Shown piece after piece: positions 25,066 to 62,804 of a stretch of DNA of 64,000 bases; the first letter of the stretch is position 1, and every line of letters begins with the position of its first letter. The DNA is taken from assembly GCA_963796685.1 (NCBI GenBank), contig CAWCMR010000022.1, positions 32,001-96,000 on the forward strand, in the 5' to 3' direction. Both the position numbers and the translations under genes were made by a program. Source of the stretch: an uncultured delta proteobacterium. Its GTDB lineage: Bacteria > Myxococcota_A > Polyangia > Fen-1088. Under the pieces are notes generated by a model. It did no database searches. It worked only from the letters and a program-made list of their open reading frames with translations, and had not been told where the DNA came from.

Positions 25066-28000
25066 AGGCATTCGGCGCGAAGGCATTCGAATGGATGGCC
25101 GGGCGCCGAGGCCTCGTGTGGTGCACCGCCTTGGCCGTCGCGCTCGGCGGCGTCCTGGTGGCGAGGCGCCTGCCGAGCGGCATCTATCCCGAGGTCGAGT
25201 TCCCGCGCATCGTGGTCGTGGCCCGGGCCGGCGACGCGCCTCCCGACGTCACCCAGGTCTCGGTGACCCGCCCGCTCGAGGCGGCGCTGGCCACCGTGCT
25301 CGGCGTGGAGCGCATCCGCTCCAAGACCATTCGCGGCTCGACCGAGATGTCGCTGCAGTTCGCGCCCGGCACCGACATGTGGCGCGCGCTTCAGCTCGTC
25401 GAGTCCCGCGTGGGAGAAGCCCGCTCGGGGCTTCCCCCGGGGGCCGAGATCACCGTCGAGCGCTTGACCACCACTTCCTTCCCGGTGCTCACCTACAACC
25501 TCACGGGGCCCATCGATTCGCGCCGGCTGCGCGAGCTCGGCGAATTCGTTCTCAAGCCGGCCTTTTCACGGGTACGTGGCGTCGGCCGCGTGGAGGTCCT
25601 CGGGGGCGACGTGCGGGAGGTCGAGGTGATTCTCGATCCCGAGCGCACCGCCGGTTTGCACATCAGCCCGGCGCAAGTCGCCGAAAAGCTGCGCGCGCAG
25701 AACGTGCTCCAGGCCGTCGGCCGCCTGGAGCAATCGCACTCGCTCGTCACCGTGATGGCCTCGGGCGAGCCGACCGGGCTCGACGACCTGCGCGCCATCC
25801 CGGTGGCCGTGGGACCCGACGGAAGCCCCATTCTCCTCGGCGCCATCGCCGAGGTGCGCGAGGGCGCGGAGGACCGGCTGCTGCGGGTCTCCGGGCCGGG
25901 GGGCGAGACGGCGCTCCTCAGCGTGGCCCGGCTGCCGGGCGCGAGCACCCCCGAGGTCGTGGCCAACGTCAAAGCCGCGGCTCGCGCAACCGCCGCCGCG
26001 CTGCCCAAGGGAGTCGCGCTCACGCCGGTCTACGATCAGGCCGAGCTGGTCGACGAGTCCATTCGCTCCGTGCGCGACGCCATCTTGATCGGCATCGCCC
26101 TGTGCGTGGGCGTGATCGCGCTCTTCCTGCGCGACTTCCGGGCCGGGCTGGCGGCCTCGCTGTCCGTGCCCCTGACCTTGGCGGCCACCTTCCTTCCCAT
26201 CGGGGGCCTCGGTCAGAGCCTGAACCTGATGTCGCTCGGCGGCTTGGCGGTGGCCATCGGGCTGGTCATCGACGACGCCATCGTGGTGGTGGAGTCCATC
26301 GGCCGGCACGTCGAGGAGGGGCTTGCTCCCGCGGTGGCCGCGCGCGACGGGACGCGCGTGTTGCTGGCCGCCCTCGTGGGCACCACGGCAACGACCGTCG
26401 TGGTGTTCTTCCCGCTCGCCTGGCTCGAAGGCGTGGTTGGCCGCTTCTTCTCCGCCCTGGCGGCCACGCTGTCGACGGCGGTGCTCATCTCGCTGGTCAT
26501 GGCGCTGACCGTGGTGCCGCTCGCCGCCGCACGCTGGATCCGACCACGGCCGGCGTCCAGCCATTCGGCGCGCTTGGCGAACGCGTATGAACGCGCGCTA
26601 GGCCCCTTCCTGCACCGGCCCTGGATCGGGCTGCTCGTCGCCTTTGGCCTGCTCGGGCTGGGGGCGATGGCGGCGGTCGAAGCCCCGTCGGGATTCCTGC
26701 CGACCATGGACGAGGGCGCCTTCGTGCTCGACTATTTCTTGCCGGCCGGGACGTCGCTTGGCGAGACCGATGCGGTGGCGCGCAAGATCGAGACCATTCT
26801 CGCGGCGACCCCCGAGGTGCGAACCTATTCTCGACGGACCGGGGCCGAGCTTGGCCCGGTCGCCGCGACGCAGGTCAACCGTGGCGACATCATGGTCCGC
26901 TTGAAGCCGCGTGCGCAGCGCCACCGTTCCGCCGACGAGGTGATCGCGGAGGTGCGCGCGAAGGTCGTCCGGGACGTGCCGGAGGCGCGCACCGAGTACA
27001 TTCAGGTGCTGCAGGACGTGCTCAACGACCTGGCGGGAACCCCACGGCCCATCGAGATCAAGATCTTCGGCGACGACTACGCGACCTTGCGGGCCAAGGC
27101 GCAAGAGGTGGTGGAACGCATCCACGACGTGCCGGGATTGGTGGACCTGTACCCGGGATTCGAAGGCCGTGCCCCGGAGCTGCGCTTTCGCATCGACGGC
27201 GCGGCGGCGGCGCGCGCGGGAGCAACCGCCGCCGACGTGGCAGGCAACCTCGATGCCTCGCTCCATGGCGTCGTCGCGTCGATTCTTGCGCAGGCCGGAT
27301 CGCCCCATCGGGGTGCGCGTGCGCTATCCGGACTCGGTTCGCTTCGACCCCGAGCGCGTGGTCGAGCTGCCTCTTCTCGTCGGCGCGGAGGGCGTCACCC
27401 GCATCTCGGCGGTGGCCACGCCCATCCACGCCAGCGCCGAGACTTCGCTCCTCCGCGAGAGCCTGCGTCCGGTCGTCATCCTGAGCGCCGACCACGAGAA
27501 CCGCGATCTCGGCTCCGTCGTGCGCGACGTGCAGAAGCGACTGCGCGGGCTCGTTTTGCCCGAGGGCTATGGCCTCGAGCTCGGCGGCCAGTACGAGGGG
27601 CAGCAAGCGACCCTTCGGGATCTTTCCGCAGTGATGGGATTCGGTCTCCTGGCCGTGTTTATCGTCCTCCTTGCGCAGTTCCGCCGCGCGCGCCTGGCGT
27701 TCGTGGTGCTCGTCTCGGTTCCGCTGGCGGTGGTGGGGGCGCTGGTGACCCTTTGGGTTCTGCAGATACCGCTCAACGCCTCCTCGCTCATGGGGTGCGT
27801 CTTGCTCGTGGGCTTGGTGGTGAAGAACGGCATCCTGCTGCTCGAACAGTTCGAGCGCCTGCTCGACGAGAACGGGCAGGACGTCGAACGGGCGCTCGTC
27901 CTTGCCGGGCGCATCCGCGTCCGCCCCATCTTGATGACCACGTTGGCCACCATCGCCGGGCTCGCCCCGCTGGCGCTTGGCCTGGGGGCGGGCGCGGAGA

Positions 28001-34997: not shown

Positions 34998-36065
34998 ATG
35001 TCCACCCTTCGTGCCACGCTCGAACAGGCTGCGGCCGGGTTGGTCCTGGCCACGGGGCAACGTCACACCATCATCATCCCCTCGAAGATCGTGCGTGTGC
35101 GCATGGTGGGGATGCTCTTCGACACCGACAAGACCTTCCTGCTCCCGTCCTCGATGGCCGGCATCCAACGTCTCAAGCAGCTCTACGACGAGCACCACCC
35201 CAAGACCGTCCTGGTGTCTGGGCACACCGACCGGGCCGGGTCCGCCGATCACAACCTGACCCTGTCGGTAGAGCGCGCGCAAGCGGTGGCGGCGTTTCTG
35301 CAAGACGACGTCGACGACTGGCTGCCGCGCTACCGGGCGGGCCAGCACAAGTCGCTGACTTGGGGCGTGCGCGAGGACCAGCTCATGCTGGCGTATCTGC
35401 GCGACGGGAGCGGCAAGCCGTACCTGGTCGGCGCGGTCAGTAGCAAGTCCGGCCCTGCCACGCGGGACGCCACCCACCGTTTTCAAGCCGACAACGGGCT
35501 CGCCCAAGCGGCCATGAACGACGACACCCGGCGCATCCTCATCCGGAAGTACATGGCGACGGACGGCACGACCCTGCCCGACGACGCCACGCTGGCCATC
35601 CACGGCTGCGGGGAATCGCACCCGTCGGTGCCCACCGCGGACAGCGTGGCCTTGGCCGAGAATCGTCGGGTCGAGATCTTCTTCTTCTCCGGACCGGCCA
35701 AGCCACCGCCGGTCGACCCTTGCCCGTCAGGGGGATGCGCCGAGTACCCGCAGTGGGTGGCGCGCTCGTCGCAGACCATCGACATCAATGCAGCGCCCGA
35801 GGTCGTCGTGTTCCTGGTCGACGAGCTGGGCCTGCCCCTGCGCAACGCCGCGGTCCGCCTGCTCTTGCCGGGCGGCGCCAAGGAAGAGGCCCAGACCGAC
35901 GAGCACGGCACGGTCCGACCCCGCGTCGCCCCCGGCACCGCGTTCGACGTCGTGGTCCTCGACGTGCACGAGGGCGGGGCGCAGGACTCCCTCACCACAC
36001 CCTCCGGGCACCACTTCGCCGCGGGTGGCGTCGCGCCGGCAACCGACTCGGGAGGTGGCGCGTGA
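34998..36065 (+). CDS. OmpA-like domain protein with inserted peptidoglycan-binding segment and C-terminal transthyretin-like module; no signal peptide
   Basis: FDTDK, GHTDRAG..NLTLSVERAQAV, GPATRDATHRFQADNGL, GCGESHP, ENRRVEIF; VFLVDELGLPL..TDEHG. Confidence 0.82.
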   Translation: MSTLRATLEQAAAGLVLATGQRHTIIIPSKIVRVRMVGMLFDTDKTFLLPSSMAGIQRLKQLYDEHHPKTVLVSGHTDRAGSADHNLTLSVERAQAVAAFLQDDVDDWLPRYRAGQHKSLTWGVREDQLMLAYLRDGSGKPYLVGAVSSKSGPATRDATHRFQADNGLAQAAMNDDTRRILIRKYMATDGTTLPDDATLAIHGCGESHPSVPTADSVALAENRRVEIFFFSGPAKPPPVDPCPSGGCAEYPQWVARSSQTIDINAAPEVVVFLVDELGLPLRNAAVRLLLPGGAKEEAQTDEHGTVRPRVAPGTAFDVVVLDVHEGGAQDSLTTPSGHHFAAGGVAPATDSGGGA

Positions 36066-37249
36066 CCCCGCGGGTGGCGTTCGTGCCGAGCACGCGCACG
36101 CAACCGCTGCGACTGCACGAGCTGGGCTTGACCCCGGAAGGGCACTGGGGGTTGATCGACGACGACGTGTGGCTGGGCGCCCAGGCCGCGCACGAGGTCG
36201 AGCTGCTCTATCTTTCCCACCCCGATTACCTGCACGCGGTCCGGCACCTCGATGCCGGCCAGATCGGCGAGGCCGTGCTGCGCCGGCGTCGGGTCTTCTC
36301 TGCTGCTCTGCCCAGCCAGGCCTTGGGCGAGGTCGCTCTGGCCGTGTCCCGCTGTATCTCGGCGATACCGGTCGGTGCATCGACCGGCGACGTCGTGCCG
36401 GATCTCCTGGCGGCCCTGGCCTCCTTCACCACCATGCCCCGCCTGGCCCACACCTCCCCCCTCGTGCTCATCGACTATCTGCGCGACGGCGAGGCCGAGG
36501 TCATCGCCCAGATCGAATCGCCGTCCATGTGCGCGGCCCAACCTGCCGGCGGCGGGCTCGATCCCGACGGCTCGGAGCGGGAGATCCGACGCCGATTCGC
36601 CACCGAGCTGGGCGCGATCGCGGCCGAGCGGGATCGCAGCGCCGACGTGCGTTTTCTTCCCTATGTCGATGTGTCGCGCACCTACTACGTCGAGCCCGCG
36701 AACCCCGAGGTGAAAAAGCGCGCCCACTTCCTGGGCGATCCGGTCCGAGACTGGGGCCAGGGCATGCTCTTGCCCCTGCCCGAGCGGGTGGCTGCCGACG
36801 TGAAGGTACTCGGGCATCGGCTGACCGTGGTGTTCCCGGCCGCCGGGCCCTTCCTGGGCGCCTTGCAGGAATGCACGGGGCCGCAGCTGGACGTGGAGCT
36901 GCACGAGCGCCTGAGCGCGCCCGGCCTCGCGGCCCATCTCGACCAGCAGCGACTGGAGCAGGCGGTCCTGCGCTCGGCGGCGCTGCTCGTGGCGGGTGCG
37001 GATGCGGAGCTTGGGCCAATTTTGCGCGCCCAGACCGAGCTGGAGGCGTCGGCCCTGCCAGGCTGGCTGACCCACGCTCAGGGTACGTTCTCGTCCTTGT
37101 CCGACCTGCCCCAGGAGCTGGCGGCCATCGTCGATACCGCCACCCTGCTGGCCGGGCTGTGCCGGCTCAAGGACAAGCCGGCCATCGCCGGCAAGGTCGA
37201 GGCGCTCGGCCGCGCGCTCTCGCACGTGGCCCGGGAAGCGAGGAGCTGA
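36062..37249 (+). CDS. Hypothetical protein (395 aa), paralog of 38445-39641
   Basis: GTGA overlap with upstream stop; GC3-biased frame; visible similarity to the 38445 protein. Confidence 0.72.
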   Translation: MTPRVAFVPSTRTQPLRLHELGLTPEGHWGLIDDDVWLGAQAAHEVELLYLSHPDYLHAVRHLDAGQIGEAVLRRRRVFSAALPSQALGEVALAVSRCISAIPVGASTGDVVPDLLAALASFTTMPRLAHTSPLVLIDYLRDGEAEVIAQIESPSMCAAQPAGGGLDPDGSEREIRRRFATELGAIAAERDRSADVRFLPYVDVSRTYYVEPANPEVKKRAHFLGDPVRDWGQGMLLPLPERVAADVKVLGHRLTVVFPAAGPFLGALQECTGPQLDVELHERLSAPGLAAHLDQQRLEQAVLRSAALLVAGADAELGPILRAQTELEASALPGWLTHAQGTFSSLSDLPQELAAIVDTATLLAGLCRLKDKPAIAGKVEALGRALSHVAREARS

Positions 37250-37254
37250 TCGAC

Positions 37255-38448
37255 ATGGCCGCCTTCTACCACCTGTGGCACCACCCTGATCTCGACGGCA
37301 GCGCCCCCTTCGCCACTGTCGATCTCGACATCCCGGCCATCCAGGGTGGCAAGACCGAATCCAAGTCGTTCCAAAGCCTGAAGAACGACATGGCCAAGCT
37401 GCGCGACGACGGCGTGGGCAAGGGCATCGTGGACGGCAGCATCGTCGACGTGGGCAAGAGCACCGAGAGCCGGGAGCTGTGGGCCCTCAAGGTGGGCAAG
37501 GGCGCAGACCACAAGATCCTGGTCACCGGCTGCCACCATGCCCGGGAATGGATCTCGGTCGAGGTGCCCTTCCTGGTGGCCAAGTTCCTCATCGACAACT
37601 ACGCGGACGCGCCCACGGACGAGAAGGGCAAGCGCATCAAGCACCTGCTCGACAATCGCGAGATCTGGTTCGTACCGCTGGTCAATCCCGACGGCCACTG
37701 GCACTCGGCGATGAAGCTGCGCCTGTGGCGGCCCAATCGCCGCAAGGTCACCTTCGATCACGACCAGACCCTGCGCGCGCCCAGATTCGGCGGGGGCACG
37801 CGGACCATCAACATCAAGGCCGGAACCTACCAGGGCATCGATCTGAATCGCAACTACCCGAGCAAGCACTGGGGCGAGGAGACCCAAGCCACCAGCCGGA
37901 ACCCGGCCGACGCGCAGTGGGGCATCTGGGCCGGCCCCTCGGCGGGCTCGGAGGTCGAGACCCAGCTCATGGTCTCCTTGATCAAGGATCAGAAGTTTCG
38001 CTCGGGCATCACCTACCACAACTTCAGCCAGCTTCTGCTCTATCCGCCCGCAGCCCGCAAGGACGCCTTCACCCAGTTCGTGGGCCAGGGCATGAGCAAG
38101 CTCATCGACGCCAACGGCAACCCCTACCGGTACATGTCCGGCGACGATCTGTATCCGACCACGGGCGATCTGATGGAATACATGTACGGCGTGCTGCCCG
38201 GCCGCCCGAATTTCACCCCCGAGCTGCGCCCCAAGGACGGTGCGCCCGACGAGCGCGCCTTCAGCGGCCTGCCCGAGGACGAGATCGAGCCGACCTTCAA
38301 GGAGAACCTGGGCGCGGCCATGGCCCTCATCAACTGCGCCGGGTTCGATGCCCCGGCCAAGGAGGTGACCATCCGGTGGTCGCCGGACACCACGGTTGGA
38401 CAGGTGGTACGCAACGGCTGGCGTGTCTTCGAGGGGCCGGCCCCATGA
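37255..38448 (+). CDS. M14 zinc carboxypeptidase (carboxypeptidase T-like), no signal peptide
   Basis: HHAREW, VNPDG, GIDLNRNY, GSEVET, TYHNFSQ, FTPELRP; RBS aggag. Confidence 0.9.
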   Translation: MAAFYHLWHHPDLDGSAPFATVDLDIPAIQGGKTESKSFQSLKNDMAKLRDDGVGKGIVDGSIVDVGKSTESRELWALKVGKGADHKILVTGCHHAREWISVEVPFLVAKFLIDNYADAPTDEKGKRIKHLLDNREIWFVPLVNPDGHWHSAMKLRLWRPNRRKVTFDHDQTLRAPRFGGGTRTINIKAGTYQGIDLNRNYPSKHWGEETQATSRNPADAQWGIWAGPSAGSEVETQLMVSLIKDQKFRSGITYHNFSQLLLYPPAARKDAFTQFVGQGMSKLIDANGNPYRYMSGDDLYPTTGDLMEYMYGVLPGRPNFTPELRPKDGAPDERAFSGLPEDEIEPTFKENLGAAMALINCAGFDAPAKEVTIRWSPDTTVGQVVRNGWRVFEGPAP

Positions 38449-39641
38449 GCGTGGGGAGCTGGATCATGGTGCTGGGAGCCATCGGGATGGGTCGCGCCGC
38501 TGCCACGCCGGGCGAGCGAATCGTGCTGTGCAAGGATCCAGCGGGCATCTGCCGGCAGGGCACCGTGCTGGGCAAGAGCACGCACGGGATCTGGGCCCAG
38601 GTCGCCGACGACGCCGTGCTGGCCGCGCATCCTGTGCCGAGGGTGCTGTACTTCTCCGTGCCCGAGTACCAAGACGCCATGTCCGGGCTGTCCGACAAGG
38701 AGCGCGCACAGGCCATCCTTCGCCGGGACGAGGTCGTCGCGGGCAACCTGTCCGGCTGCCTGTTCGCGCAGCTCACGCGGGACCTGAAGGACAGCGCGCC
38801 CGGCGCCACCCGCGCGGATCTCGACGCCCTGATCGAGGCCGCGGCCGTGCTCGACGGCGGCAGCGAGCGCCTGCGCGGCTCGGGTGCCGGAGAGCTCCTG
38901 GACATGGCCAGCGCGGATCTGGCCCAGCTCGTGGTCGAGCTGCCCAAGGGCCCCCTGGTCGAGGCCTTCGCCAAGCAGGCCGAGGCCGTGGGCCGCCTGG
39001 CCACCGGCCTACGCAAGGACGGCAGCCGCTCGCCATTGCCCTTCGCCGAGCCGAGAGCCGTGTTCTTCATCCCCTCGCTGCCCGAGAAGGAGCTCCTCGT
39101 GCTGCGCGCCCTCGCGGGCTATCCGCACGCGTGGCATGGTGGCGTGGTCGCCATCGTGGATCGACACCAGCTCGCGCAGGCCCCCTTCAAGGGGCGTGCG
39201 CTCGAGCAGCTCTACCCAGGGCCCGCCGACTATCTCGCGGATCTGACCGAGCTGACGGCCGCCCAATTGGATCGCCGTCTGGCGACCCGCCTCAGGTCGG
39301 GCTTCGACCGGAACGGCTTCGTGGCCGAGCTGGCCTTTCGCCACGCCATCCTCTGTCGCGCGCTGACCACCCTGGCGCAGAAGAGCCGCATGCCCTGGGC
39401 CACCGAGTGGCAGGCCATCGACGCGATGGACGTCGACAATCTGCAACGGGTCCTGGCCGCGACCCGGCCCACCGCCACCTCGGAGCGCGAGCCTCGGGTC
39501 GACCGTGCACGCGGCGATTTCGCCTTGGCCGCCGGGCTCCTGCGCGATGGCGATGCCAGGCACCGGGCCATGTTGGTCAAGGCCACCGACGCCCTGTCGA
39601 AGCTTGCCCTTGGCAAGGGCTGGCCAAGGACCGACCCATGA
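38445..39641 (+). CDS. Hypothetical protein (398 aa), paralog of 36062-37249, possible signal peptide
   Basis: ATGA overlaps at both ends; hydrophobic N-terminus ending RAAA. Confidence 0.75.
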   Translation: MSVGSWIMVLGAIGMGRAAATPGERIVLCKDPAGICRQGTVLGKSTHGIWAQVADDAVLAAHPVPRVLYFSVPEYQDAMSGLSDKERAQAILRRDEVVAGNLSGCLFAQLTRDLKDSAPGATRADLDALIEAAAVLDGGSERLRGSGAGELLDMASADLAQLVVELPKGPLVEAFAKQAEAVGRLATGLRKDGSRSPLPFAEPRAVFFIPSLPEKELLVLRALAGYPHAWHGGVVAIVDRHQLAQAPFKGRALEQLYPGPADYLADLTELTAAQLDRRLATRLRSGFDRNGFVAELAFRHAILCRALTTLAQKSRMPWATEWQAIDAMDVDNLQRVLAATRPTATSEREPRVDRARGDFALAAGLLRDGDARHRAMLVKATDALSKLALGKGWPRTDP

Positions 39642-42010
39642 CCAGCGCGGGCATGATGAGCTATCCCTCGCTGCGCGTGTCCTCATCACCAGGCGCGCAG
39701 ATCCTCCTGGTTCGCGCCACCGATGCGCTACGCCTGTGCCGGGAGGCGGGCTATCGGCTCCTGCCCGCCCATCGCACACTGCCGCTGCTCGGCACCCTCG
39801 ACCGCCGCGCACAAGGTGAGGTGAGAGCCTTCGTGGCCCATGTCTCGCGCACCCGACTGCGCCTGGAGGGTGCTCAGGATGCCCTGGTGCTGGCCTCGCT
39901 GCGCGAGCTGGTCCGAAGTCAGGACGTCGTCGCCATCTGCGAAGGTGACACCAGCCAGAGCCCCGACGGCGACGGGACCGCTGAGCAGCGCCGCCTGGTG
40001 CGCGCCATCGCGGCTCTGACCCGAGGCGGCCGGCTTGCATACCAAGGACGCGGGTATCGGTTGGTCGCCGCCCCTGACCTCGGGCGACTGCCTGACCGCG
40101 ACAGCTACGAGGTCGTTCGCCGCGCCGACGCCGAGCAGATCCTCACCGGTCTAGCCAATCACAGCACTGCCCCCTCGGCCCAGCTGGCCAGCCTACTCAC
40201 CCAGGCCAAAGGCATGCTGGCGCACGACTGGCGTCCGCCCATGGCGCCGGACGGGCTCGTCTTGTTCCGGCGTATCTCGACCGTCGCGGCCAGCAGCCCC
40301 AGCTCCGACCCCGCCATCACGCCGTCGCAGATGAAGAAGCTGGTCTCGGACTGGATCGAGATCGAGGTGGCCGACGAGGACGCCGTGCCTTACACCGGCA
40401 GCTACGCCCTGGACCTGCCCGATTCCAGCTCCATCGCCGGGACCTTCGACGACGACGGGTTCTACGGCAACCACGCCATCAGTACCGGGCAGTGCAAGCT
40501 GTTCCTGCCGGGCAAGCCGGAGGCCGCCGACGAATTCAAGGTGACGGTGGTCGACGAGACCGGTCAGCCGGTCGGGGGCGTGGCCCTCGTGTTCGGCGTC
40601 GGCGAGTCCAATTTCCCCGTCACCGCCGACGCCTCGGGCGTGGCCAAGCGCAAGGTGCCCAAGGCCAGCAGCGTGTCGGTCTCGTTCGCCGATGCGAGCG
40701 CCCTGGCCGCCACCATGAAGCCCCTCTGGGCCTCCCCGCGCAAGGTCGAGCGCAGCGCTTGGGTGCAGGAAGATGACGCCACCGCCACGGTGAGCCTGTG
40801 GGGCGGGCGCGTGGTGGAGGCGATCGCCGAAGACAGCGACGACAGCGACGACGGTCCCCTGCCCGAGGTCGAGGTCGAGCGCTTCGACGGCCTGCAGGTC
40901 GCGGCCGACAGACCGGGCATGTTGAGCGTCCAGCCGCTCGTGCTCATGGTCAGCCTGCTCGGCGAGCACTTCGACACCGACAAGTGTTTCCTTTTGCCCA
41001 AGGCGCTCGGCACCGTGCAGGACTTGGTGCAATTGCACCGGCAGTATCAGGACACCGACCTGCTCATCGTCGGTCACACCGACACCAGCGGGGCCGACGA
41101 CTACAACCTGGACCTGTCCCTCGAACGCACCTCCGCCATGCGGGCCTACCTCACCGACGACGCCGACGCCTGGCTCGCGTGGTACGACTTGGGCAAGCTG
41201 GCGAGCAAGCGCTGGGGCGAGACCGAGGACGCCTTGATGATCGGCGCCGTGGTGGACGGCAGCCCCTATCCCGCGTCCGTCCTCGGCTACCAGCAGTGGC
41301 ACAACGCACTGGCCGGCCGACAAGACGGCTACGAGGTCTTGGACGAGGACGGCGCCATCGGTCCGCACACGCGCAAGCAGCTCATCCTCGACTACATGCA
41401 CCGGGAGGACACCACGGTCCCGGCCGGCACCGCCATCGCGGTCCACGGCTGCGGCGAGCTCTTCCCGCTCGACGAATCGGGCACCGAGCTGGACCCGGCG
41501 GCGCAAGACGGGCAGGACCAACCGGAGGACCGGCGGGTCGAGGTGTTCCTGTTTCCAAAGGAGATCGGCATCGCACCGCCCGTGCCCGGCGACAAGGCCA
41601 GCCAGGGCGAAGAGGAATATCCCGAGTGGCGCCGGCGCGCCGTGGAGGCCGACCTGGCGTCCGACGTGCAGGCCGGCGACTGCGTGGTCTCGCTGGTCCT
41701 GGTCAGCAACTCGGGCAACGTGGTGCTGTCCAATCGGAAGTACGAATTGCGCATCGAAAACGGTCCGGTCTTGCAGGGCAAGACCGACGCCGACGGCTTC
41801 CTCGAGCACACCGGCCTTCCCGCGGGCGACCACACCCTGGTCGTGGATGGATGTGAATCCCGGGTCGGGGCAACCCCGCCGGACTGCACGCGCAGGCGCC
41901 ACATGATGGCGGGTTACGTGCTGATTGCGGGAGATGGCGGCGAAGACGGAGACGGCGAAGGCGGCGGAGACGGCGGGGGCGAAGGAGACGGCGAAGGAGA
42001 AGACATCTGA
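39638..42010 (+). CDS. Multidomain OmpA-like/peptidoglycan-binding protein (790 aa) with three transthyretin-like modules and acidic tail
   Basis: WIEIEVADED..GTFDDDG; VTVVDETGQPV..ADASG; FDTDK, GHTDTSG..NLDLSLER, DGAIGPHTR, GCGELFP, EDRRVEVF; GKTDADG. Confidence 0.82.
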   Translation: MTSAGMMSYPSLRVSSSPGAQILLVRATDALRLCREAGYRLLPAHRTLPLLGTLDRRAQGEVRAFVAHVSRTRLRLEGAQDALVLASLRELVRSQDVVAICEGDTSQSPDGDGTAEQRRLVRAIAALTRGGRLAYQGRGYRLVAAPDLGRLPDRDSYEVVRRADAEQILTGLANHSTAPSAQLASLLTQAKGMLAHDWRPPMAPDGLVLFRRISTVAASSPSSDPAITPSQMKKLVSDWIEIEVADEDAVPYTGSYALDLPDSSSIAGTFDDDGFYGNHAISTGQCKLFLPGKPEAADEFKVTVVDETGQPVGGVALVFGVGESNFPVTADASGVAKRKVPKASSVSVSFADASALAATMKPLWASPRKVERSAWVQEDDATATVSLWGGRVVEAIAEDSDDSDDGPLPEVEVERFDGLQVAADRPGMLSVQPLVLMVSLLGEHFDTDKCFLLPKALGTVQDLVQLHRQYQDTDLLIVGHTDTSGADDYNLDLSLERTSAMRAYLTDDADAWLAWYDLGKLASKRWGETEDALMIGAVVDGSPYPASVLGYQQWHNALAGRQDGYEVLDEDGAIGPHTRKQLILDYMHREDTTVPAGTAIAVHGCGELFPLDESGTELDPAAQDGQDQPEDRRVEVFLFPKEIGIAPPVPGDKASQGEEEYPEWRRRAVEADLASDVQAGDCVVSLVLVSNSGNVVLSNRKYELRIENGPVLQGKTDADGFLEHTGLPAGDHTLVVDGCESRVGATPPDCTRRRHMMAGYVLIAGDGGEDGDGEGGGDGGGEGDGEGEDI

Positions 42011-43963
42011 TGGGCAAGGGCAAGAAGAAGCCGCAGGCCAAGCCACTCGATTCGACCTTCGCCATCGGCGGCTCGAACATCCTCATCACGGGCGACGACA
42101 GCAAGCCCACGAACGATGTCCTGCAACTGGTCTACTCGGGCTCCGAGGCCGAGGTCGACAAGGTCACGGTCACCCTGGTCGAGATCGACGAGGACGAGGA
42201 CATCGACCCCAAGCCGCCCGGTCCGGACGCCACGGTCGCGCAGTTCTTCGGCAAGATCTCGGGCAAGAAATTCGTCACCGATTCGGAGAAGCTCGCCACC
42301 GACAAGCTGCCCGCCAGCGCGCCCTTCATCCAGCTCTCCATCGGCGGCAAGTCCTACCCCAAGATCAAGCTGCCCGGGGTGGATAGCGAGAACGGCCTGT
42401 TCGAGCTGGGCGTCGTGGTCACCGCGGGCAGCTCGAAGTACCGCAGCACCTGGCGCGCCTATGCGCGCCACTACACCATCCGTCCGGCCATCGGGCCCGT
42501 GATGGCCTTCGTGACCGGGGCCGAGGACAACACCTTCTTCACCGCAGCCGGCAAATACTGGAAACAGCACGCCGACGCCGTGCTCAGCAAAGACGGAATG
42601 AGCCTGGAGGAGATCGTCAAGTACCTGGTCAAGCATCGCGAGGGCTTCGGCGACTACGGCGAGGTCAACATCGTCAGCCACGGCAATCGGCTCTCGGCCT
42701 TGCTGCGCATCGTGACCGGCGGCGAGCGCGAGCTGCGCCTCAAGACCTTGTTCCGCACCCTCGGCATCGAGGGCGAGGAGTCCGACGATCCCGTCACCAA
42801 GGCGGCGCAGGCGGCGAACCTGGAGAAGTTCAATCACACCGCCGCCCAGCTGGGCCTCGGCGACAAGTCCCGCGTGGTCTTCCGCGCGTGCAACATCGGC
42901 CATCGCCCCGACGTCCTGCAGGCCGTGCGCGAGCACATCTTCGCCGACGCGTGCGCGGTCTTCGCGCCCAAGTTCCTGCAGGGCTACGGCGACGGGGATT
43001 CTCATCACCAAGAAGAAGGTCGACCCGTTCGAGTTCTTCGCCGAGGATCTGCAGCACCACGTGCCGGGCAAGGTCAACCCGCCGCGCGCGCCCAACAAGG
43101 TCCCCGACGGGACCAGCCAGGAGGAGATGATGGCGCCCATCTTCAAGACCGACCATCCCTCGCTCAAGCTCGACGACGAGAAGGCCTCCTACACTTCCAA
43201 GATCTCGTCCACCAAGCCCGGCGATGCAACCTTCGGCCTGACCGGCACCGAGGCGACCTTCTTCGACTTCCTGGCCAACGCCAGCAAGACCGACGCCCAG
43301 CTCGGCGCGGAGATGCAGACCGGATTCGATGCCCAGCGCTCGGAGGACATGGAGTTCACCCAGTGGAAGCAATGGGTCGCAGAGCCCATCACCCGCAAGG
43401 ACCAGACCCAGAAGGTCGACAACAAGGTCGAGGTCCTGACCACGGAGAACGTGTGGGTCACCGTGGCCAGCAGCAAGGCCGTCCCGCACCAGTCCTTCGC
43501 CTCGCCCGGCGGCGAGCTGGCCCTGGGCTCGGATCCAGCCCTGGGCACGGCCACCTCCTCGGACGAGCGGCCGGCCGGCATCACCTTGCCCGACAAGAGC
43601 GTGGCGGCCCTGCACGCGAAGATCACCACCTCGGGCTCGCCCGACGCGGCGGTCGACGCGGAGACCGGTCAGACCGTCACCTTCCAAGGCAAGGCCGCGG
43701 GGTCGTTCACCGGCACGGTCCCGGTGTCGTTCTCGGTCGGCCCGTTCGCGATCTCCATGCGGCCCGAGAAGCAGCGCCTGGCCACGGCGCAATTGACCCG
43801 GACCCTGGTGCATTGGCGCCGGCCCTTGCGCAAGGACGACCCCAAGGTGTCGTACGGAAAAGATCGCCCTTTGGTCGTTCCCGACGTGGACAACAAGGAC
43901 CATTATGGCTCGAGTGATGATCCCGCACCGTCGGACGCCGATCTGGCCAAGCTCTTCGAGTAG
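42010..43963 (+). CDS. Hypothetical protein with clan-CD (caspase/C80/DUF4347-like) His-Cys motifs (apparent +1 frameshift at ~42999)
   Basis: TGATG coupling; EVNIVSHGN and RVVFRACNIG; removing one T gives GDGDLITKKKVDPFEFFAED and a 650-aa ORF. Confidence 0.68.
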
Positions 43964-45597
43964 CCTCGCCATCGTCTTGCGCGTGGTGCTGGTCGGTGGC
44001 CTGGCGCAGGCGCAGCCGGCCGGCCCGGCGCGAGACGCGGGCGCGACCCCGATCCAGGACGCCGTGGCAGGTGCGGGCCACGACTTGGGCGACGCGCAGA
44101 CCAGGCTGCTCGAGCTGGCGGCCGCCGGACACGCCTTGTTCGTGCGACGCGCCCAGCGCGCGGGCTCGGCCTGCGACGAGGTCCGGCTGCGTCCGTCGGT
44201 GCCCGACGGCTCCGCCGGAGAGATAGCTCTCGGCGACCTGAAGGGCAGGTACGCGATCCGCCGGGGCCAGCTCGACGTGTTCCACGCCGGTCCGGCCACC
44301 GACTTCAGGGTAAGCGAGAGCTTCGTCCTGCACGGAGCCACCCGGGACGGCGTGCTGCTCGGCGGGGCCCTGCTCGCGGTCAGCAAGGAGGCTTGCCAGG
44401 GCCATACGTCTTATCGGCCTCTGGCCCTCAAGAGTGAGCGCTGCGCCCCGATCCCTCAGCTCGGCCGAGCCGTGTCGGCCACGGCCGACGACGCGCCCTG
44501 GGTGTTCAACCACCGTGGCCTGCTCGGGCCCTGTGGGTGGGCAGGGGCGTACTTTGCAAACGGGACACGCTATCCGCTGGAGCTGTTCGTGCCGCTCGGA
44601 CGGGCGTGGCTCTCCGGACCGCTCGCGGGCGGGACGGGCGAGCCACACATGGTCGATCTGCGCATCGAAACGGCCCGCCTGCGGCTGGGCGAGCGCATCC
44701 TCGAGCCCCTTCCCAGCGTCCTGTCGCAGGCGCCGGCCGACGCGAAGCCGGCGCGGATTGGGCCGGGCGGCCTCGCCGGTGGCCCAGCCGGTCACCCAGC
44801 CGGTGACCAAGATGGCGACTTCGCCGGCGACTTTCTGGGCGAGACGCGGCCCCTCTATCTTCCCGTGCTGCGCGAGCACGGCGTCACCTGCGCCGAGGTC
44901 GACCTGTCCAAGCTGCAAGCGACCATCACCCTGCCGAGCTTCTCGGGCAACCCGCGCAAGCTCGAATTCCAAAAGGACGACTTCGGCCTCTCGCTGTGGC
45001 CGGCGCGCTCCGAGAGAGGCAGCCTCGCGCAGGGCCGGCGTGCCGCGACCGTCGCCCTGTGCGACGGCGGGGCCATTCACCTCGCGGTTCACGGCCGGGA
45101 CGCCGACTCCTACCGCGTCGGCGGCTCGCGCTGGTTTTTCGACCGGGCCACCTGCGAGCGGCAACACGGCCACGTGCTGCCCGCGCTGGTCGATTCTCAT
45201 CAACCTCGCGAGCAAGCCGTGTGCGCCAAACGACGCCGGTCTGCAAGCTCGGCCCGCTGCTCATCTGACGAGCGGGACGTACTATGTGCGGTCGCCGGAC
45301 GCCCAGGACTGCGTCCCGATCGAGGTCGTCGGGCCCAAGCAACCCGGACTCGAGTCCGGATACGTGCGCGTGAAGCCTGGGCTGGCCACGGCCGAGCTGT
45401 GCGACATCCGCTTCGACGAGGTCGCGGGCGGTCGATACCTGTGGCGAAGCCGCCCCGATTCCCCCGATGGGGATTCGGTCGAGACCAAGCCGTTCCGAGA
45501 GGGTACTCACGTCGGCGTGCAAGTCGGCGCGAGCCGGTGGTATCGAGACCCGTCATCCTGTCGGGCTTCCGCTGCCGCGCGCGGCCCCACACGCTGA
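43917..45597 (+). CDS. Exported Cys-containing hypothetical protein (apparent +1 frameshift at ~45194)
   Basis: Signal-like segment ending AQA; correction gives ALVDLINLASKPC and ~559 aa; repeated 'WY/WF..xxxC' segments; start uncertain. Confidence 0.58.
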
Positions 45598-45775: not shown

Positions 45776-47956
45776 CTACTTGGCGAGCTTCATGATGGCG
45801 GCGCGGCTCATGTCCGACCAGTACAGGGCCGCGTCGTCCTGGTAGAGCTTTCCGCTCGCGCTTTGCCCGGTCGCCATGGTCTTCGTTCCGGTGCAGCCCG
45901 ACGAGGCTGGCGAGCAACGGTTCAGATTGCCGCTGGCATCGAACCAGTACAGATACGAAGCGTCCTCTGTCGCCATCACGCTGGTTGAAGCGACGGCGGT
46001 GATGAGCTGCAGGGACGGCGAAGAACCCACCGGCACGCGATACAGGATTCCGGCGGTCGTCGAGGGGTCCCAGAGCAGCACCGACGGCGCATTGACGTCG
46101 ACGATGACCATGGACGAGGTAAGTCCCGAGGACAGCAGCTCCGTCGCATACGAGGCATTGTAGCCGATGGAAAACAGGCTGGTGGATGACGGATCGGTCC
46201 GGAGATAGAAGACGGTATTCTGGTAGGCGCTGAACGCGCTGTAACTGACGCTCGAGTAGTCGCTGAGCGTGTCGTCATACGACGCCTTCACATCGCCACC
46301 CGTGGTGTACCACGTGATGTTCGCCGGGGCCGAGGTGGGATTGTAGAGAGGAACATACGCTGGCTGTGAGCTGCCCCATGAGGCGGCGAACGCCCCGCCG
46401 TTGATGGACCCGAGCTGCACCTTGGTGCCCGCGGTCATGTCGTAGAGGTAGTTGGCGTCCATATTCTCGGCGAAGATGAACACGTCGTTGCCCACCACCC
46501 CGCGAAACGCAGCATAGGCATAGTTCGGAACCACCTGGGTGCTCGCGCTGCCCGCGGCCTTGCCCACTCGAGCAGCCGACGCTTCCACGAAGCCGGATTG
46601 ATAGACGGAGTAGTAGAGGTTCTGGGCGTCGATCCCGAACAGGCCCTGAAAGGTGTCTCCGAGGTTCGCGGCCACCGCGACCGGCTGGCACAGACCGCTG
46701 CTGCACGTCCCGCCGAGGCAGTCGTGCCCACAGGCTCCGCAATTATGGCCATCGGAGGTCACGTCGAGGCACGAGCCGCTGCACTCTTTCTTGGGCGAGG
46801 CACAGGTGCACGCGCCGAGGCTACACAGGTAGCCGCCGGCGCAAGCGGTCTGGTTCGCCCACGCTCCGCTCGTGCCGCACTTTTGCGGCACACCACCGGC
46901 GCTGCATTGAACCTGGTTTGGCGTACACACGCCGGTGCATCCGCCCGCGCTGACGTCACAGGTGTACGTGCAAGCCTCCACGCTGGGCATCGAGCATGAG
47001 CCGGCCGTGCAGGTGCCCACGGCTTGGTAGCCGGAGCTCGTGCAAGCCGGCGTTCCGCAGGAAAGGGTGGGGTAGGTGCAGGATGGGCTGGTCCCATCGC
47101 AAGCCGCGGCGCAGATATCGCTGCCCGTGCAGGGCGTGTGCCCCGTGTGGGGCGATGCTTTGGCGGCCAAGGTCTTGCAGGTTCCCGTGGAGCCACCGAC
47201 ATCGCACGCCTCGCACGAGCCCGTGCACGCCTTGTCACAACACACGCCATCGGGTGAGCAGTAGAGGCCGGCGGCGCATCCTCCACCCACGACCTGGCAG
47301 GCCGTTCCCTGCTTCGACTTGCAGGCCCCCGTCGAGTCGCAGGTGCCGCTGCAACGGCCGGTGGGATCGTCCTGGCCGACCAGGGCAACGCACGTGTTGC
47401 TGGCGTTGCAGGTCTTGCAGCTTCCGGCGCAATCCGCGGCGGTACAACAGGCAGTCGAATCGATGCACTCGCCGTTGCAGCTCACCTTGCCCGACGGGCA
47501 TCCCGCCGCATCGAGCGTGGCGGCGTCCATCCGCGCTGGAGCGTCCATGGCAGCGTCGGGGTTGCCATCCGCCGGCGCGTCGGCGAGCTCGCTATCGGTG
47601 GCCGGCTCGATGCGCGCGTCCGGCGTCGCGTCCAGTCGTGCACCGGGAAGGCCATCGCCAGGGGCGTCGTTGTTCACTTCGGCGCTTCCGTCGTTGGTCC
47701 CGGCTCCCGCTTCGCTCCCACCCATGGGCGAGGCGTCGCTGCGGCTGCCACCAAACCCGCCGCTTGGGGAGCAGGTCCCGGACGAGGTGTCGCACACGTA
47801 GCCGCTCGGACAGCCGGTCTGCGTCTTGCACCTCAGGCGCGACGGATCGGCGGCGTCGAAACAGCCTAGAAAGCCCGGTAAAGCGAGCGCAACGATCCAG
47901 AACCCGATCGGAAAAGGTCGCCGATTCTCTCGTCCAAGGGCGCGTGTCGTCTTCAC
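45776..47956 (-). CDS. Myxobacterial Cys-rich lipoprotein with C-terminal beta-propeller-like domain
   Basis: Lipobox FLGC; DGVCCDKACTGSCEAC; DGHNCGACGHDC; DASYLYW and DDAALYW repeats. Confidence 0.8.
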   Translation of the reverse strand: MKTTRALGRENRRPFPIGFWIVALALPGFLGCFDAADPSRLRCKTQTGCPSGYVCDTSSGTCSPSGGFGGSRSDASPMGGSEAGAGTNDGSAEVNNDAPGDGLPGARLDATPDARIEPATDSELADAPADGNPDAAMDAPARMDAATLDAAGCPSGKVSCNGECIDSTACCTAADCAGSCKTCNASNTCVALVGQDDPTGRCSGTCDSTGACKSKQGTACQVVGGGCAAGLYCSPDGVCCDKACTGSCEACDVGGSTGTCKTLAAKASPHTGHTPCTGSDICAAACDGTSPSCTYPTLSCGTPACTSSGYQAVGTCTAGSCSMPSVEACTYTCDVSAGGCTGVCTPNQVQCSAGGVPQKCGTSGAWANQTACAGGYLCSLGACTCASPKKECSGSCLDVTSDGHNCGACGHDCLGGTCSSGLCQPVAVAANLGDTFQGLFGIDAQNLYYSVYQSGFVEASAARVGKAAGSASTQVVPNYAYAAFRGVVGNDVFIFAENMDANYLYDMTAGTKVQLGSINGGAFAASWGSSQPAYVPLYNPTSAPANITWYTTGGDVKASYDDTLSDYSSVSYSAFSAYQNTVFYLRTDPSSTSLFSIGYNASYATELLSSGLTSSMVIVDVNAPSVLLWDPSTTAGILYRVPVGSSPSLQLITAVASTSVMATEDASYLYWFDASGNLNRCSPASSGCTGTKTMATGQSASGKLYQDDAALYWSDMSRAAIMKLAK

Positions 47957-48789
47957 TAGAATGCTCCTGTCAGTACGGCGCCGGCCTGACTTGTCCCGAT
48001 GACCGGCACCAGGGCGAGCCCGCTGGCCGGCCCTGATTTTTCCTTGAGCCCGATCCCGTAGAGGACGGCCCCGGTGACCACGCAGGCTGCCCCAAGTCCG
48101 TAGCCGACCCAAGCCAAGGCCTCGTAGGTCTTGCGGTCGGACTCCTTGGAATACCCGTCGTAGGTCGAGTACATGTCGTTAACCGTGTGGTTGGCCTTCA
48201 CGTTCAAGAGGATGCCAGCGCCCAAGGCCGCGACGCCGAAGGTCGCGACGACGATGCCGCCGGTTCGCAAGCCCGCGCCGCCGGACGGCGGTATGGGGCC
48301 CGGTGCGGGTTGCTGGATCACGGTCGGCTCGGGCGCTGTTGCCGGCGCCGACGCAGCGGGCGCGACCGGCGGAGCATCCACGACGGGTTGGGGGGCGGGC
48401 GAAGTGGGCACGATAGCCCGTTCTTGGGCCAGCATTTCCTTGCAGTAGGAGATGTGCTGGTCGGCGTCGGCCTTCTCGTTGCTCCCCAGCTTCTCGTGCC
48501 CCGCGAGCAAGAATTCCTGGAAGCGCGCAATGGCATCGTCGTACCGGCGGTTCTGCTCGAAGCAGCGTCCCTGGTTGAAGATGTAGGTCGCGTTCTTGGT
48601 TTCGACGAACAGTTTCGAGAGGACGGCGACCCCCTCGGCGTAGTTGCCGTCGAGGCATGCCTGGCGCGCAAGGTTCGCGCGCGCTTGCCTGCTGGCGGCC
48701 GACGCCGGCCGAGCCGCAAGCAGTGCGAAGACGATGGCGACTCCCACGAGGGTGGGAGTTTGAAGGGTGCGGCTTTGACGCTCGATCAT
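47956..48789 (-). CDS. TPR-containing exported/membrane protein (myxobacterial TPR/PEGA-type)
   Basis: ARQACLDGNYAEGV, YIFNQGRCFEQ..YDDAIARFQEFL, Pro-rich linker, Gly-rich hydrophobic C-terminus ending GAF. Confidence 0.8.
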   Translation of the reverse strand: MIERQSRTLQTPTLVGVAIVFALLAARPASAASRQARANLARQACLDGNYAEGVAVLSKLFVETKNATYIFNQGRCFEQNRRYDDAIARFQEFLLAGHEKLGSNEKADADQHISYCKEMLAQERAIVPTSPAPQPVVDAPPVAPAASAPATAPEPTVIQQPAPGPIPPSGGAGLRTGGIVVATFGVAALGAGILLNVKANHTVNDMYSTYDGYSKESDRKTYEALAWVGYGLGAACVVTGAVLYGIGLKEKSGPASGLALVPVIGTSQAGAVLTGAF

Positions 48790-53518: not shown

Positions 53519-54523
53519 CTAGAGTCGGACGCGGCAATCGAGGGTGCAGAGGCCGCTGTCGTTGAACGGGCCGTCGTCACACTCCTCGCCCCACGCACTG
53601 TCCACCTTGCCGTCGCCACAGTAGGCCGGAACCGTGCACGTATCGGTGCAGCCGCTCCGAGCCCCATAGACCGCCGTGTTCTTGCCCCAGCCAAGGTCGC
53701 ACGTCTCCGGGCCGTTGACGATACCGTCGCCACAGAGGAGGTAGCGGCAGTGGGTGCTGCAGCCGCCATAGTTGCTGTCGTCGTTGGCGGAACCGTCGTC
53801 GCATTCCTCGGCGCCCTCGAGCTTGCCGTTGCCGCAATAGACGCCGTCGACCGGCAGCCCCGCACAATTGCCGCCGTCGACGTAGGGCAGCCGGCGCAGG
53901 CAAGCTCCGCTCGAACAGTCCCAACAGGGCTCCGTCAGACAGAGGCTCGAGCAGCCATCGCCGCTCATCGAATTGCCGTCGTCGCAGCTCTCGCTGCCGA
54001 CGAGCAGGCCATCGCCGCAGATCGGGCTGCAACGCCGTCCGGGCACCGGGCAGTGGAAGCCTGGCTCGACCGCGCAGCTCGACGAGCAGCCGTCGCCATC
54101 CGCGAGATTGCCGTCGTCGCAGAGCTCGCCGGCGCCGAGCAAGCCATCGCCGCAGACCACCTGACGCGGGTAGGGCGGCGACGGACAGTCCGACCAGCCA
54201 CACTCGATCTGGCAGGTGGGATCGCAGCCATCGCCCGGGAGGGTGTTGCCATCGTCGCACGTCTCCCCGGGATCGACGAAGCCATCACCGCAGCTCGGGC
54301 CACGCAAGTCGAAGGCGGTGTCGGGTGGGGAGCGCGGTGGGAGGTCCGGGCTCGACAAGGGCGCGAGATCCGGTGCGAGAGCGGCGTCCTCGGCTGCCGC
54401 CGGGCTCGGACCTCGACCCGCGTCCGGCGGTCCGACCTGCGCGAGATGCGTGCGGCCGCAGGCCAGGGCCCCGCCTGTGCCCAAGAGCAGCGCGGCGTAC
54501 CGCCATCGCGTCGTGCTTGCCAT
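53519..54523 (-). CDS. Myxococcus cysteine-rich repeat (DUF4215-like) lipoprotein
   Basis: Lipobox ALAC; six CG(D/N)G..E.CD.G units. Confidence 0.88.
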   Translation of the reverse strand: MASTTRWRYAALLLGTGGALACGRTHLAQVGPPDAGRGPSPAAAEDAALAPDLAPLSSPDLPPRSPPDTAFDLRGPSCGDGFVDPGETCDDGNTLPGDGCDPTCQIECGWSDCPSPPYPRQVVCGDGLLGAGELCDDGNLADGDGCSSSCAVEPGFHCPVPGRRCSPICGDGLLVGSESCDDGNSMSGDGCSSLCLTEPCWDCSSGACLRRLPYVDGGNCAGLPVDGVYCGNGKLEGAEECDDGSANDDSNYGGCSTHCRYLLCGDGIVNGPETCDLGWGKNTAVYGARSGCTDTCTVPAYCGDGKVDSAWGEECDDGPFNDSGLCTLDCRVRL

Positions 54524-54691
54524 GCGTTGGTATTCTATTCTCCTCTCTGAGCGCTGCCCAGAGGGCGCGATACCCTGCCGCCATCCTTTGGCGGCGCGAT
54601 ATAATCGTCGCCGGATGGGGTGAAACGTCCTGCGCCCGACCAAGAAACGCCGTTGCCGGTTGGCACATCCAAGTCAACGAGGTCCACGCGC

Positions 54692-62584: not shown

Positions 62585-62804
62585 GGGGCCCTCCGATGGC
62601 TACGTTCTTCCCGACCGAAGAAGCCCCTTCTAGCACGATTGCGGCTCTCCGAGGAGAGCCCAAGGTCAAGGCGTCATGGCGAGACCGTGGTGGATTCGTG
62701 GCAGGAATGTGGTGGCAGGGCTGACCAGCGCGAGCATCGTTTGGGCGAGAGGAAATTGCTGGTGGGTCGACGCCGGGGACCGCCGGGCAGGATGGTAGGA
62801 GCAA

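Follow-up and report, generated by a model that had tools for sequence, protein, structure and literature searches.

A seven-gene locus of an uncultured soil Polyangia bacterium: candidate orphan effector-immunity cassettes with an M14 carboxypeptidase and a putative Cys/His protease

Gene content and organization of the locus

We analyzed a 64-kb stretch of DNA (hereafter the window; G000:C22:32001-96000) from an uncultured member of the Polyangia, focusing on a run of seven co-oriented genes that may encode antibacterial effectors and their immunity proteins. The source genome (G000) is a metagenome-assembled genome (MAG) of soil origin that comprises 7.3 Mb in 26 contigs, is 88.6% complete, and has a G+C content of about 66%. 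A third-position GC frame plot and the junction sequences confirm seven overlapping + strand genes at positions 34998-45597, joined in the manner that the original prediction for this DNA had described. No terminator-like + strand site was found within the run, in a scan that overall performed at the level of chance (6 sites vs. 5.3 expected) and that returned no promoter-like sites. The genes are, in order:

34998-36065, + strand: gene A (355 amino acids, aa), an OmpA-like peptidoglycan-binding protein with a PG_binding_1-like insert and a C-terminal Ig/transthyretin-like domain, without a signal peptide
36062-37249, + strand: gene X1 (395 aa), sharing a GTGA overlap with A; a member of an unnamed family and apparently cytoplasmic paralog of X2
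37255-38448, + strand: gene M14 (397 aa), after a 5-nt gap from X1; a zinc carboxypeptidase of T/A type, without a signal peptide
38445-39641, + strand: gene X2 (398 aa), sharing an ATGA overlap with M14; an apparently exported X1 paralog and candidate M14 inhibitor (immunity protein)
39638-42010, + strand: gene B (790 aa), sharing an ATGA overlap with X2; an N-terminal domain here called B_N, a CarboxypepD_reg-like domain, an OmpA-like module, and a C-terminal beta domain
42010-43963, + strand: gene 6 (about 651 aa in two pieces), joined to B by a TGATG junction; a putative Cys/His protease
43917-45597, + strand: gene 7 (about 559 aa in two pieces), overlapping gene 6 by 47 nt; an apparently exported protein and candidate immunity partner of gene 6

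The lengths given for genes 6 and 7 are the sums of two unjoined frame pieces. The frame plot shows a one-base frame change in each of them, on which the original prediction was silent, and these changes are considered below.

The domain assignments made earlier for the OmpA-like and M14 proteins were supported by Pfam. The OmpA family (PF00691) is matched by A at 39.1 bits and by B at 29.9 bits, with a cut-off of 27.2, and both proteins carry a GHTD...N..LS..RA motif, which we take to be the OmpA-like binding motif with its conserved Asp and Arg. A and B have in common a module of about 300 residues (34% identity, E 2e-44), in which the OmpA-like region carries a PG_binding_1-like insert and is followed by a beta domain. 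Pfam matches of A to PG_binding_1 and Big_1 are weak; its ortholog in another Polyangia MAG (L004) matches PG_binding_1 at E 4.7e-6, and A is 64-74% identical to its orthologs. The Peptidase_M14 family (PF00246) is matched by the third protein at 160.1 bits (cut-off 21.6; E 1.2e-46). As had been proposed, X1 is a paralog of X2, though a distant one (25% identity, E 7e-9). NCBIfam returned generic OmpA matches and a sub-threshold MpaA match for the window proteins, and nothing else. An N-terminal motif common to A and a metallopeptidase of another genome (G408) was dropped as a candidate, an own-genome search with it having matched A and one internal site.

Comparison of related loci divides the region into two separable modules of four and three genes, A-X1-M14-X2 and B-gene 6-gene 7, the second of which is rarer. 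The order A-X1-M14-X2 recurs in a genome of the same genus (G401), in L004, and on a near-identical metagenome contig (L006), and two short contigs (L005 and L007) carry a portion of it, while B, gene 6, and gene 7 are absent from all the other A-X1-M14-X2 loci read. The related loci were obtained from a 4-row alignment search, which gave one genome locus and three metagenome loci with Polyangia MAGs as their sources, and the flanking genes differ in each of five contexts. The idea that the seven genes form one system was thus not upheld, synteny being kept for A-X1-M14-X2 alone. Members of the X1/X2 family (the X family) were found in 2/36 other genomes of the bacterial family. In a sample of the phylum, the X family profile (alignment A1) detected none among 400 other genomes, with four candidates per genome scored, and a single-sequence search with X1 gave a weak match in one of the 400. 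Conservation is uneven across module 1: relative to G401, A and M14 are 72 and 73% identical, respectively, and X1 and X2 are 48 and 43% identical.

The operon is flanked by genes for large Cys-rich or repeat proteins, all on the - strand (45776-48112, 53522-54673, and 60107-62599). One of these proteins is Cys-rich, has 778 aa, and is unmatched; the others are a DUF4215 protein and an FG-GAP protein that matches TcdB_toxin_midN.

An M14 carboxypeptidase and its putative partner proteins

The central enzyme of module 1 has carboxypeptidases T and A as its nearest solved relatives. Its HHAREW, WRPNR, DLNRNY, YHNFS, and LYPTTGD segments align with carboxypeptidase T motifs, and the metal-binding and catalytic motifs are intact; a further motif, FTPELRP, was read by eye. 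The genes on either side of it, X1 and X2, belong to a family that is unmatched in Pfam, NCBIfam, and PADLOC; a search of 1.84 billion proteins at E<=1e-3 gave 87 representative clusters for it. AlphaFold modeled X1 with a predicted local distance difference test score (pLDDT) of 93.5 and a predicted template modeling score (pTM) of 0.92. Foldseek matched this model to no PDB structure at E<=0.001, and a PDB profile search with alignment A1, which includes X2, returned nothing relevant. Two structural readings of X1 were set aside. One was a four-helix bundle, for which the ferritin-like matches given by VIA-align (Z 12) lie in the noise range of that tool for helical proteins. The other was a glycosyltransferase-like fold, for which ESM Atlas cluster scores of 0.89 fall under the tool's line of 0.9 and were not used.

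A hydropathy scan of the seven proteins found hydrophobic N-termini in X2 and gene 7 (hydropathy 3.00 in the latter) and in none of A, X1, M14, B, and gene 6. The earlier statement that A, B, M14, and the protease lack export signals agrees with this hand reading and with the N-terminus of M14, which is conserved and free of a signal in 4/4 orthologs. A cytoplasmic placement does not hold for X2, which appears to be exported: a signal-like N-terminus, followed by a conserved ERVVFC...G.C, is present in all ten aligned proteins of X2 type. Proteins of X1 type open directly with M..RVVF, and X1 itself begins at a beta-strand, without a signal. By the same hand reading, the putative effectors have no signal and each of the two peptidases is followed by an exported protein.

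Modeling of adjacent pairs had been suggested as a check, and it was applied to M14 and X2. Complex prediction for M14 with mature X2 scored 0.89, 0.90, and 0.85 in three runs, vs. 0.00 for the best of three controls. The mark used was reached in calibration by 58 of 80 solved complexes and 2 of 110 mismatched pairs, figures that are approximate here because our own alignments were used. At least 87% of contacts agree among the runs, and the partner pLDDT is at least 84. The M14 side of the predicted interface includes R97, R159, R162, S258, and Y300. Alignment with carboxypeptidase T puts these residues beside the zinc ligands, the substrate-carboxylate Arg, and the lid Tyr, which would lay X2 across the active-site cleft; as a prediction, the modeling supports binding of M14 by X2.

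A related genome, G435, carries a remnant of module 1 that bears on the role of X2. Fragments of A (residues 1-115) and M14 (residues 304-394) remain there and X1 is deleted, while X2 is intact, with 403 residues and a clear signal peptide. To judge from its sequence, this single case has the pattern of an orphan immunity gene.

These observations also bear on whether module 1 might serve the producing cell itself. In a self-directed operon for wall remodeling or recycling, for instance during development or sporulation, M14 would act on the cell's own muropeptides, the OmpA-like proteins would be anchors, and X1 and X2 would be regulators. M14 enzymes that act on murein peptides do exist, and the window enzyme has a weak match to MpaA (NF007897; E 4.3e-6); that match, however, reaches 25.9 bits in NCBIfam, below the cut-off of 157, and the enzyme belongs with the T/A type of carboxypeptidase. 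Binding to a cell's own wall is a property of OmpA and PG_binding_1 domains, but the wall-binding proteins here lack an export signal. An inhibitory X2 would suit regulation as well as immunity, yet regulation does not fit well with the retention of X2 alone in G435, nor does a self-directed function with a cassette that is found in only 2/36 other genomes of the family and in differing contexts. We consider a self-directed function to be quite unlikely. Effector-immunity logic, by whatever route of delivery, is in our view likely.

The protease module, the B_N domain, and possible routes of delivery

Gene 6 has no sequence match in Pfam or the PDB, and its fold was read from a model of a homolog (P0091; pLDDT 81.7) rather than from the window protein. 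Three parts can be recognized, namely an N-terminal beta-sandwich, a clan-CD-like Cys/His protease core, and an FHA-like domain (Z 10.8 in the homolog). Gene 6 contains the motifs NIVSHGN and FRACNIGH, and the His (NIVxHGN) and Cys (FRACNIG) are kept in at least 90% of the rows of the family alignment (A4). The best solved match to the core of the homolog is Tce1 (Z 9.7, root mean square deviation 3.7, 149/178 residues aligned), a type VI secretion system (T6SS) effector, with further matches to the cysteine protease domain of RtxA (Z 6.6) and to SAVED-CHAT (Z 6.5; Foldseek probability 0.99). The N-terminal beta-sandwich resembles the N-terminal domain of BtaeB, a Bacteroides T6SS effector (BtaeB-NTD; Z 8.4), which is a weak lead given that scores of 6.6-6.8 are reached by unrelated Ig-like folds. 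Among 88 other genomes of the order, one contained the gene 6 family, and its homologs form nine clusters in a large protein collection. A gene 6 homolog (P0093) and a B-like homolog (P0105), both from the Joint Genome Institute, each have a longest contig of 14,626 bases; the two may share one contig, which would mean adjacency of B and gene 6 in another organism. Gene 7 has a repeated G.SRW..D...C motif, shows a weak internal repeat (E 0.004), and is unmatched in Pfam, NCBIfam, and PADLOC.

Genes 6 and 7 are each interrupted by a one-base frame change:

42997-43007, + strand: first frame-break site (gene 6), at an 11-mer
45192-45202, + strand: second frame-break site (gene 7), at the same 11-mer

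The 11-mer has just these two copies in the whole 7.3-Mb genome. A programmed +1 frameshift, suggested by the identity of the two sites, was rejected as the principal explanation because homologs are unbroken and public contigs are one letter shorter. Nine further natural gene 6 homologs (573-651 aa, seven of them 619-651 aa) cross the first site in one frame. Public soil-metagenome contigs from three runs, 90-99% alike to the window, have one letter fewer at 42999 (two runs, one contig each) and at 45194 (one contig of the third run), which argues that the breaks are assembly artefacts. They are probably either such artefacts or strain-private changes, with both genes intact in the population.

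Frame breaks are not confined to this operon. Elsewhere in the window, an AcrB-type pump and an outer-membrane efflux gene are also split (23170-23190; ~27290-27310), and the VipB model matches the tssC of the same genome (G000:C15:58933-59784) as three fragments that differ in frame, which again points to indel errors in the assembly. Genome-wide, a +1 frame switch follows in-frame GAT TCT in clearly coding DNA at 16/33 sites, and the same hexamer in the other two frames is associated with a switch at 0/46 and 4/154 sites. The efflux-gene break shares the GAT TCT context, and the AcrB break sits at a C/G run. Breaks at GATCT sites most likely reflect systematic one-letter insertion by the assembly, by which the frame bias is explained in part.

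The N-terminal domain of gene B (B_N, residues 1-290) has no sequence match in Pfam, and in the ESM Atlas it matches only unnamed Myxococcota clusters (0.92 and 0.91). Apart from the window protein itself, B has 21 homolog clusters in the large protein collection, most of which combine B_N and OmpA. B_N is fused there mostly to OmpA or PG_binding_1, and a protease core is its partner in one genome. Four more copies of B_N are present in the same genome, 1-10 copies occur in each of 12/12 same-genus genomes, and 16/61 relatives' genomes carry it, in open frames of 86-886 aa. A contig of G408 (L019, C156:1-11388) encodes an 873-aa fusion in which a truncated OmpA module connects B_N with the protease core of gene 6. 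Downstream of this fusion lie two tandem paralogous lipobox proteins (~400 aa) and then a protein of 791 aa that lacks a signal and in which PG_binding_1 occurs twice, together with an HExxH motif.

Two of the copies in the window's own genome precede an uncharacterized open reading frame (ORF) of 489-500 aa and then Imm72/Imm71 immunity genes, which earlier work ties to Ntox48 toxins (Zhang et al., 2012; PMC3482391). B_N thus shows the features expected of polymorphic toxins: a common N-terminal domain, varied partners, and immunity genes downstream of two own-genome copies. The two loci (L021 and L022) form a probable polymorphic toxin locus; the copies are inverted (G000:C5:255000-269000 and 278000-292000), and one adjoins a DDE transposase. 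At a third own-genome locus (L020, G000:C25:968000-987999), a signal-less OmpA-like protein of 481 aa, a signal-less Cys/Trp-rich protein of 423 aa, and a Sec-signal protein of 337 aa are encoded, near a PG_binding_1 protein, a pentapeptide-repeat protein, and another B_N copy. As read from these N-termini, L020 appears to repeat the scheme of a signal-less OmpA-like protein, a second signal-less protein, and an exported protein.

B_N is also linked to T6SS genes in some relatives. In five same-genus genomes, a Pfam-confirmed vgrG lies within 3.1 kb at 3/32 B_N copies, vs. about 0.13 expected by chance in a hand estimate. At the first of these loci the B_N copy is divergent from vgrG and has an A-like OmpA/PG_binding_1 ORF after it; at the other two, B_N stands directly upstream and two genes upstream of vgrG, respectively.

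The protease and B_N need also to be weighed with respect to an intracellular function, in which cytoplasmic OmpA-like and protease proteins would sense or answer phage in defence or abortive infection. A caspase-like protease with an FHA-like domain, a patchy distribution, and a variable context would all be in keeping with defence, as would weak PADLOC matches to ZorB/MotB. Those matches, however, span the generic OmpA core alone (33-43 residues) and were rejected. Moreover, two members appear to be exported, M14 is predicted to meet the exported X2, and some B_N family members neighbor vgrG or polymorphic-toxin immunity genes. A defence function is, on balance, most unlikely.

With respect to secretion systems, TssC (PF05943) is encoded in 4/4 genomes with module 1 or its remnant and in 22/41 genomes of a family sample; the carrier genomes are 86-90% complete where this is known. 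The window's own genome gave ten match rows for Phage_GPD (VgrG, PF05954), corresponding to about eight genes since some rows are pieces, together with one Hcp (PF05638) and one PAAR, none of them on the window's stretch. The sheath of extracellular contractile injection systems (eCIS), Phage_sheath_1 (PF04984), was not found in three carriers (G000, G401, and G453) and had one match in the fourth (G435), which makes an eCIS route unlikely.

This last result concerns a proposal made in 2012 for toxins ending in OmpA domains. According to that work, toxins delivered by Photorhabdus virulence cassettes (PVC) can carry an OmpA-superfamily domain at their extreme C-terminus in proteins that do not use Sec, and they were proposed to bind stem peptides and perhaps to be toxic via peptidoglycan peptides (PMC3482391). 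A and B are likewise non-Sec proteins with an OmpA domain and could in principle be cargo of an eCIS or PVC. The PVC toxins are tied to PVC/eCIS loci, whereas A and B occur in genomes without a detected eCIS sheath, including the window's own at 88.6% completeness, and in A and B the OmpA domain is an internal module with a PG_binding_1-like insert rather than a C-terminal end. Delivery by an eCIS or PVC is therefore very improbable. The earlier proposal does mean that the combination of genes, which the original prediction did not recognize as a described system, is not wholly new.

Proposed model and its significance

We favor the reading that the region consists of two tandem orphan antibacterial effector-immunity cassettes, directed against the cell envelope of neighbours and delivered by a T6SS, and we put its probability at roughly 0.55. 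In this model, A and M14 would be made without signal peptides and exported independently of Sec. In the periplasm of the target, A would bind peptidoglycan and M14 would trim stem peptides. X2, sent by Sec to the producer's own periplasm, would cover the M14 cleft and protect kin, and X1 would remain in the cytoplasm and, until export, either prevent harm by M14 (or A) or keep it in a state fit for loading. B would join a vgrG-linked N-terminal domain to an OmpA module like that of A, gene 6 would be a Tce1-like cysteine protease effector, and gene 7 would be its exported immunity partner. The parts of this model that we infer are the toxicity, the substrates, what X1 does, and delivery by a T6SS. 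X1 could be a cytoplasmic guard or loading factor, and this is the least secure step.

Several observations weigh against this reading. No vgrG, hcp, PAAR, tss, eCIS, or known adaptor genes were found in the 64-kb window, no known T6SS targeting domain was found by Pfam in the window proteins, and no T6SS or eCIS genes stand beside the cassette in the four other contexts read, G401, G435, and L004 among them. None of the five B_N copies in the window's own genome is near a VgrG match. The co-occurrence of module 1 with TssC is confounded by kinship, because all sampled members of the genus have TssC and the X family is present in 1/12 of them. The signal peptides are hand readings from hydropathy and by eye, and relatives of gene 7 were undetectable in the loci searched. 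Finally, X1 lacks a signal and the model does not account for what it does, and paralogous partners beside the unrelated A and M14 are a poor fit to a scheme of one toxin and one antidote. Of the earlier claim that delivery is by a contractile injection system encoded elsewhere, the T6SS part has in its favor the TssC encoded in all four carriers, the fold of the gene 6 core, and the position of B_N by vgrG in three loci, and has against it the lack of linkage at the cassette; the eCIS part appears unlikely.

Effectors and immunity proteins of the kind described might instead be served by a route other than a T6SS, such as vesicles, lysis, or one of the other contact-dependent pathways of myxobacteria (a Tad-like Kil apparatus, a needle-less type III-like system, or outer-membrane exchange). 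In favor of such a route, neither this locus nor any of the four-gene cassettes that were read has a linked T6SS gene, and 29/32 B_N copies are not near vgrG. Nevertheless, the three loci with B_N by vgrG exceed the ~0.13 expected, the fold nearest to that of gene 6 belongs to a T6SS effector, and TssC is encoded in all four carriers. The toxins known from outer-membrane exchange are lipoproteins, and the cassette proteins, unlike them, have no lipobox. We regard delivery by one of these other routes as somewhat unlikely, and T6SS delivery remains the reading that we prefer.

T6SS wall-effector pairs are known from orphan loci as well, and their immunity genes can likewise be orphans. The organization of M14 and X2 is like that of the Tae/Tai amidases and of the L,D-carboxypeptidases Tlde1/Tae5 with Tldi/Tai5, in which a signal-less effector is followed by an exported immunity protein that neutralizes it in the periplasm (10.1101/2020.02.18.954545; PMC9638812). 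Those pairs have an amidase or an L,D-transpeptidase fold, whereas the enzyme here is an M14 metallocarboxypeptidase of T/A type. The partner family here is unnamed and has no PDB Foldseek match at E<=0.001, and the locus adds a cytoplasmic partner paralog and an OmpA-like protein without a signal. When the literature was searched for M14 enzymes as T6SS effectors, a general review was all that emerged. Proteinaceous inhibitors of M14 carboxypeptidases include latexin and those of leech, tick, and potato. X2 is like them in being predicted to cover the M14 active-site cleft, but it is far larger (~370 residues in its mature form) and has no detected similarity to them.

Adaptor and trafficking modules of T6SS that stand beside vgrG include DUF4123/Tap, DUF1795/Eag, and DUF2169, and N-terminal markers of MIX/FIX type are also known. 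B_N resembles these in being a lineage-expanded N-terminal or stand-alone module, with varied downstream proteins and immunity genes and sometimes with vgrG nearby; unlike them it has no Pfam family match. Modules of this kind are also named in a report on Tce1 (PA0256), a putative cysteine protease effector that is loaded into Hcp3 rings of the H3-T6SS of Pseudomonas aeruginosa (PMC13323088). The His-Cys dyad of Tce1 aligns with that of TcdB (PMC13323088), and its order is the same as in gene 6. The structural match of Tce1 to the modeled gene 6 homolog is moderate (Z 9.7), and Tce1 and gene 6 differ in size: Tce1 has 310 residues and is carried inside Hcp rings, whereas gene 6 encodes about 651 residues with extra beta-sandwich and FHA-like domains and for that reason would be too large for Hcp-ring loading.

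The kind of system proposed is known, and the families are new in their proposed role: M14 as effector, the X fold as its partner, and B_N as a vgrG-linked module. A further claim, which we put forward tentatively as a possibility, is that the region encodes the first injected antibacterial effector of the M14 metallocarboxypeptidases, together with a matched pair of inhibitors of a new fold, of which X1 would silence the enzyme in the cytoplasm prior to loading and X2 would shield the periplasm from enzyme coming in. The signal-less OmpA-like proteins would then be non-enzymatic wall-binding co-effectors or carriers, and B_N would be a new vgrG-linked loading domain, expanded in one genus of the Polyangia. 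To our knowledge, the 2012 prediction of OmpA toxins is untested so far, a statement for which no dedicated search was made.

Orphan effectors that lie far from secretion genes are hard to find, and the interbacterial weapons of the Polyangia are little known. If the favored reading is true, M14 would be a new enzyme class among wall-targeting effectors, and X2 would represent a new inhibitor fold and a possible tool against M14 carboxypeptidases. The X1/X2 pair would be a test case for two-compartment immunity, and the OmpA-like proteins would give an experimental footing to the 2012 proposal. B_N, finally, would provide a new marker domain with which effectors could be mined in myxobacterial genomes.

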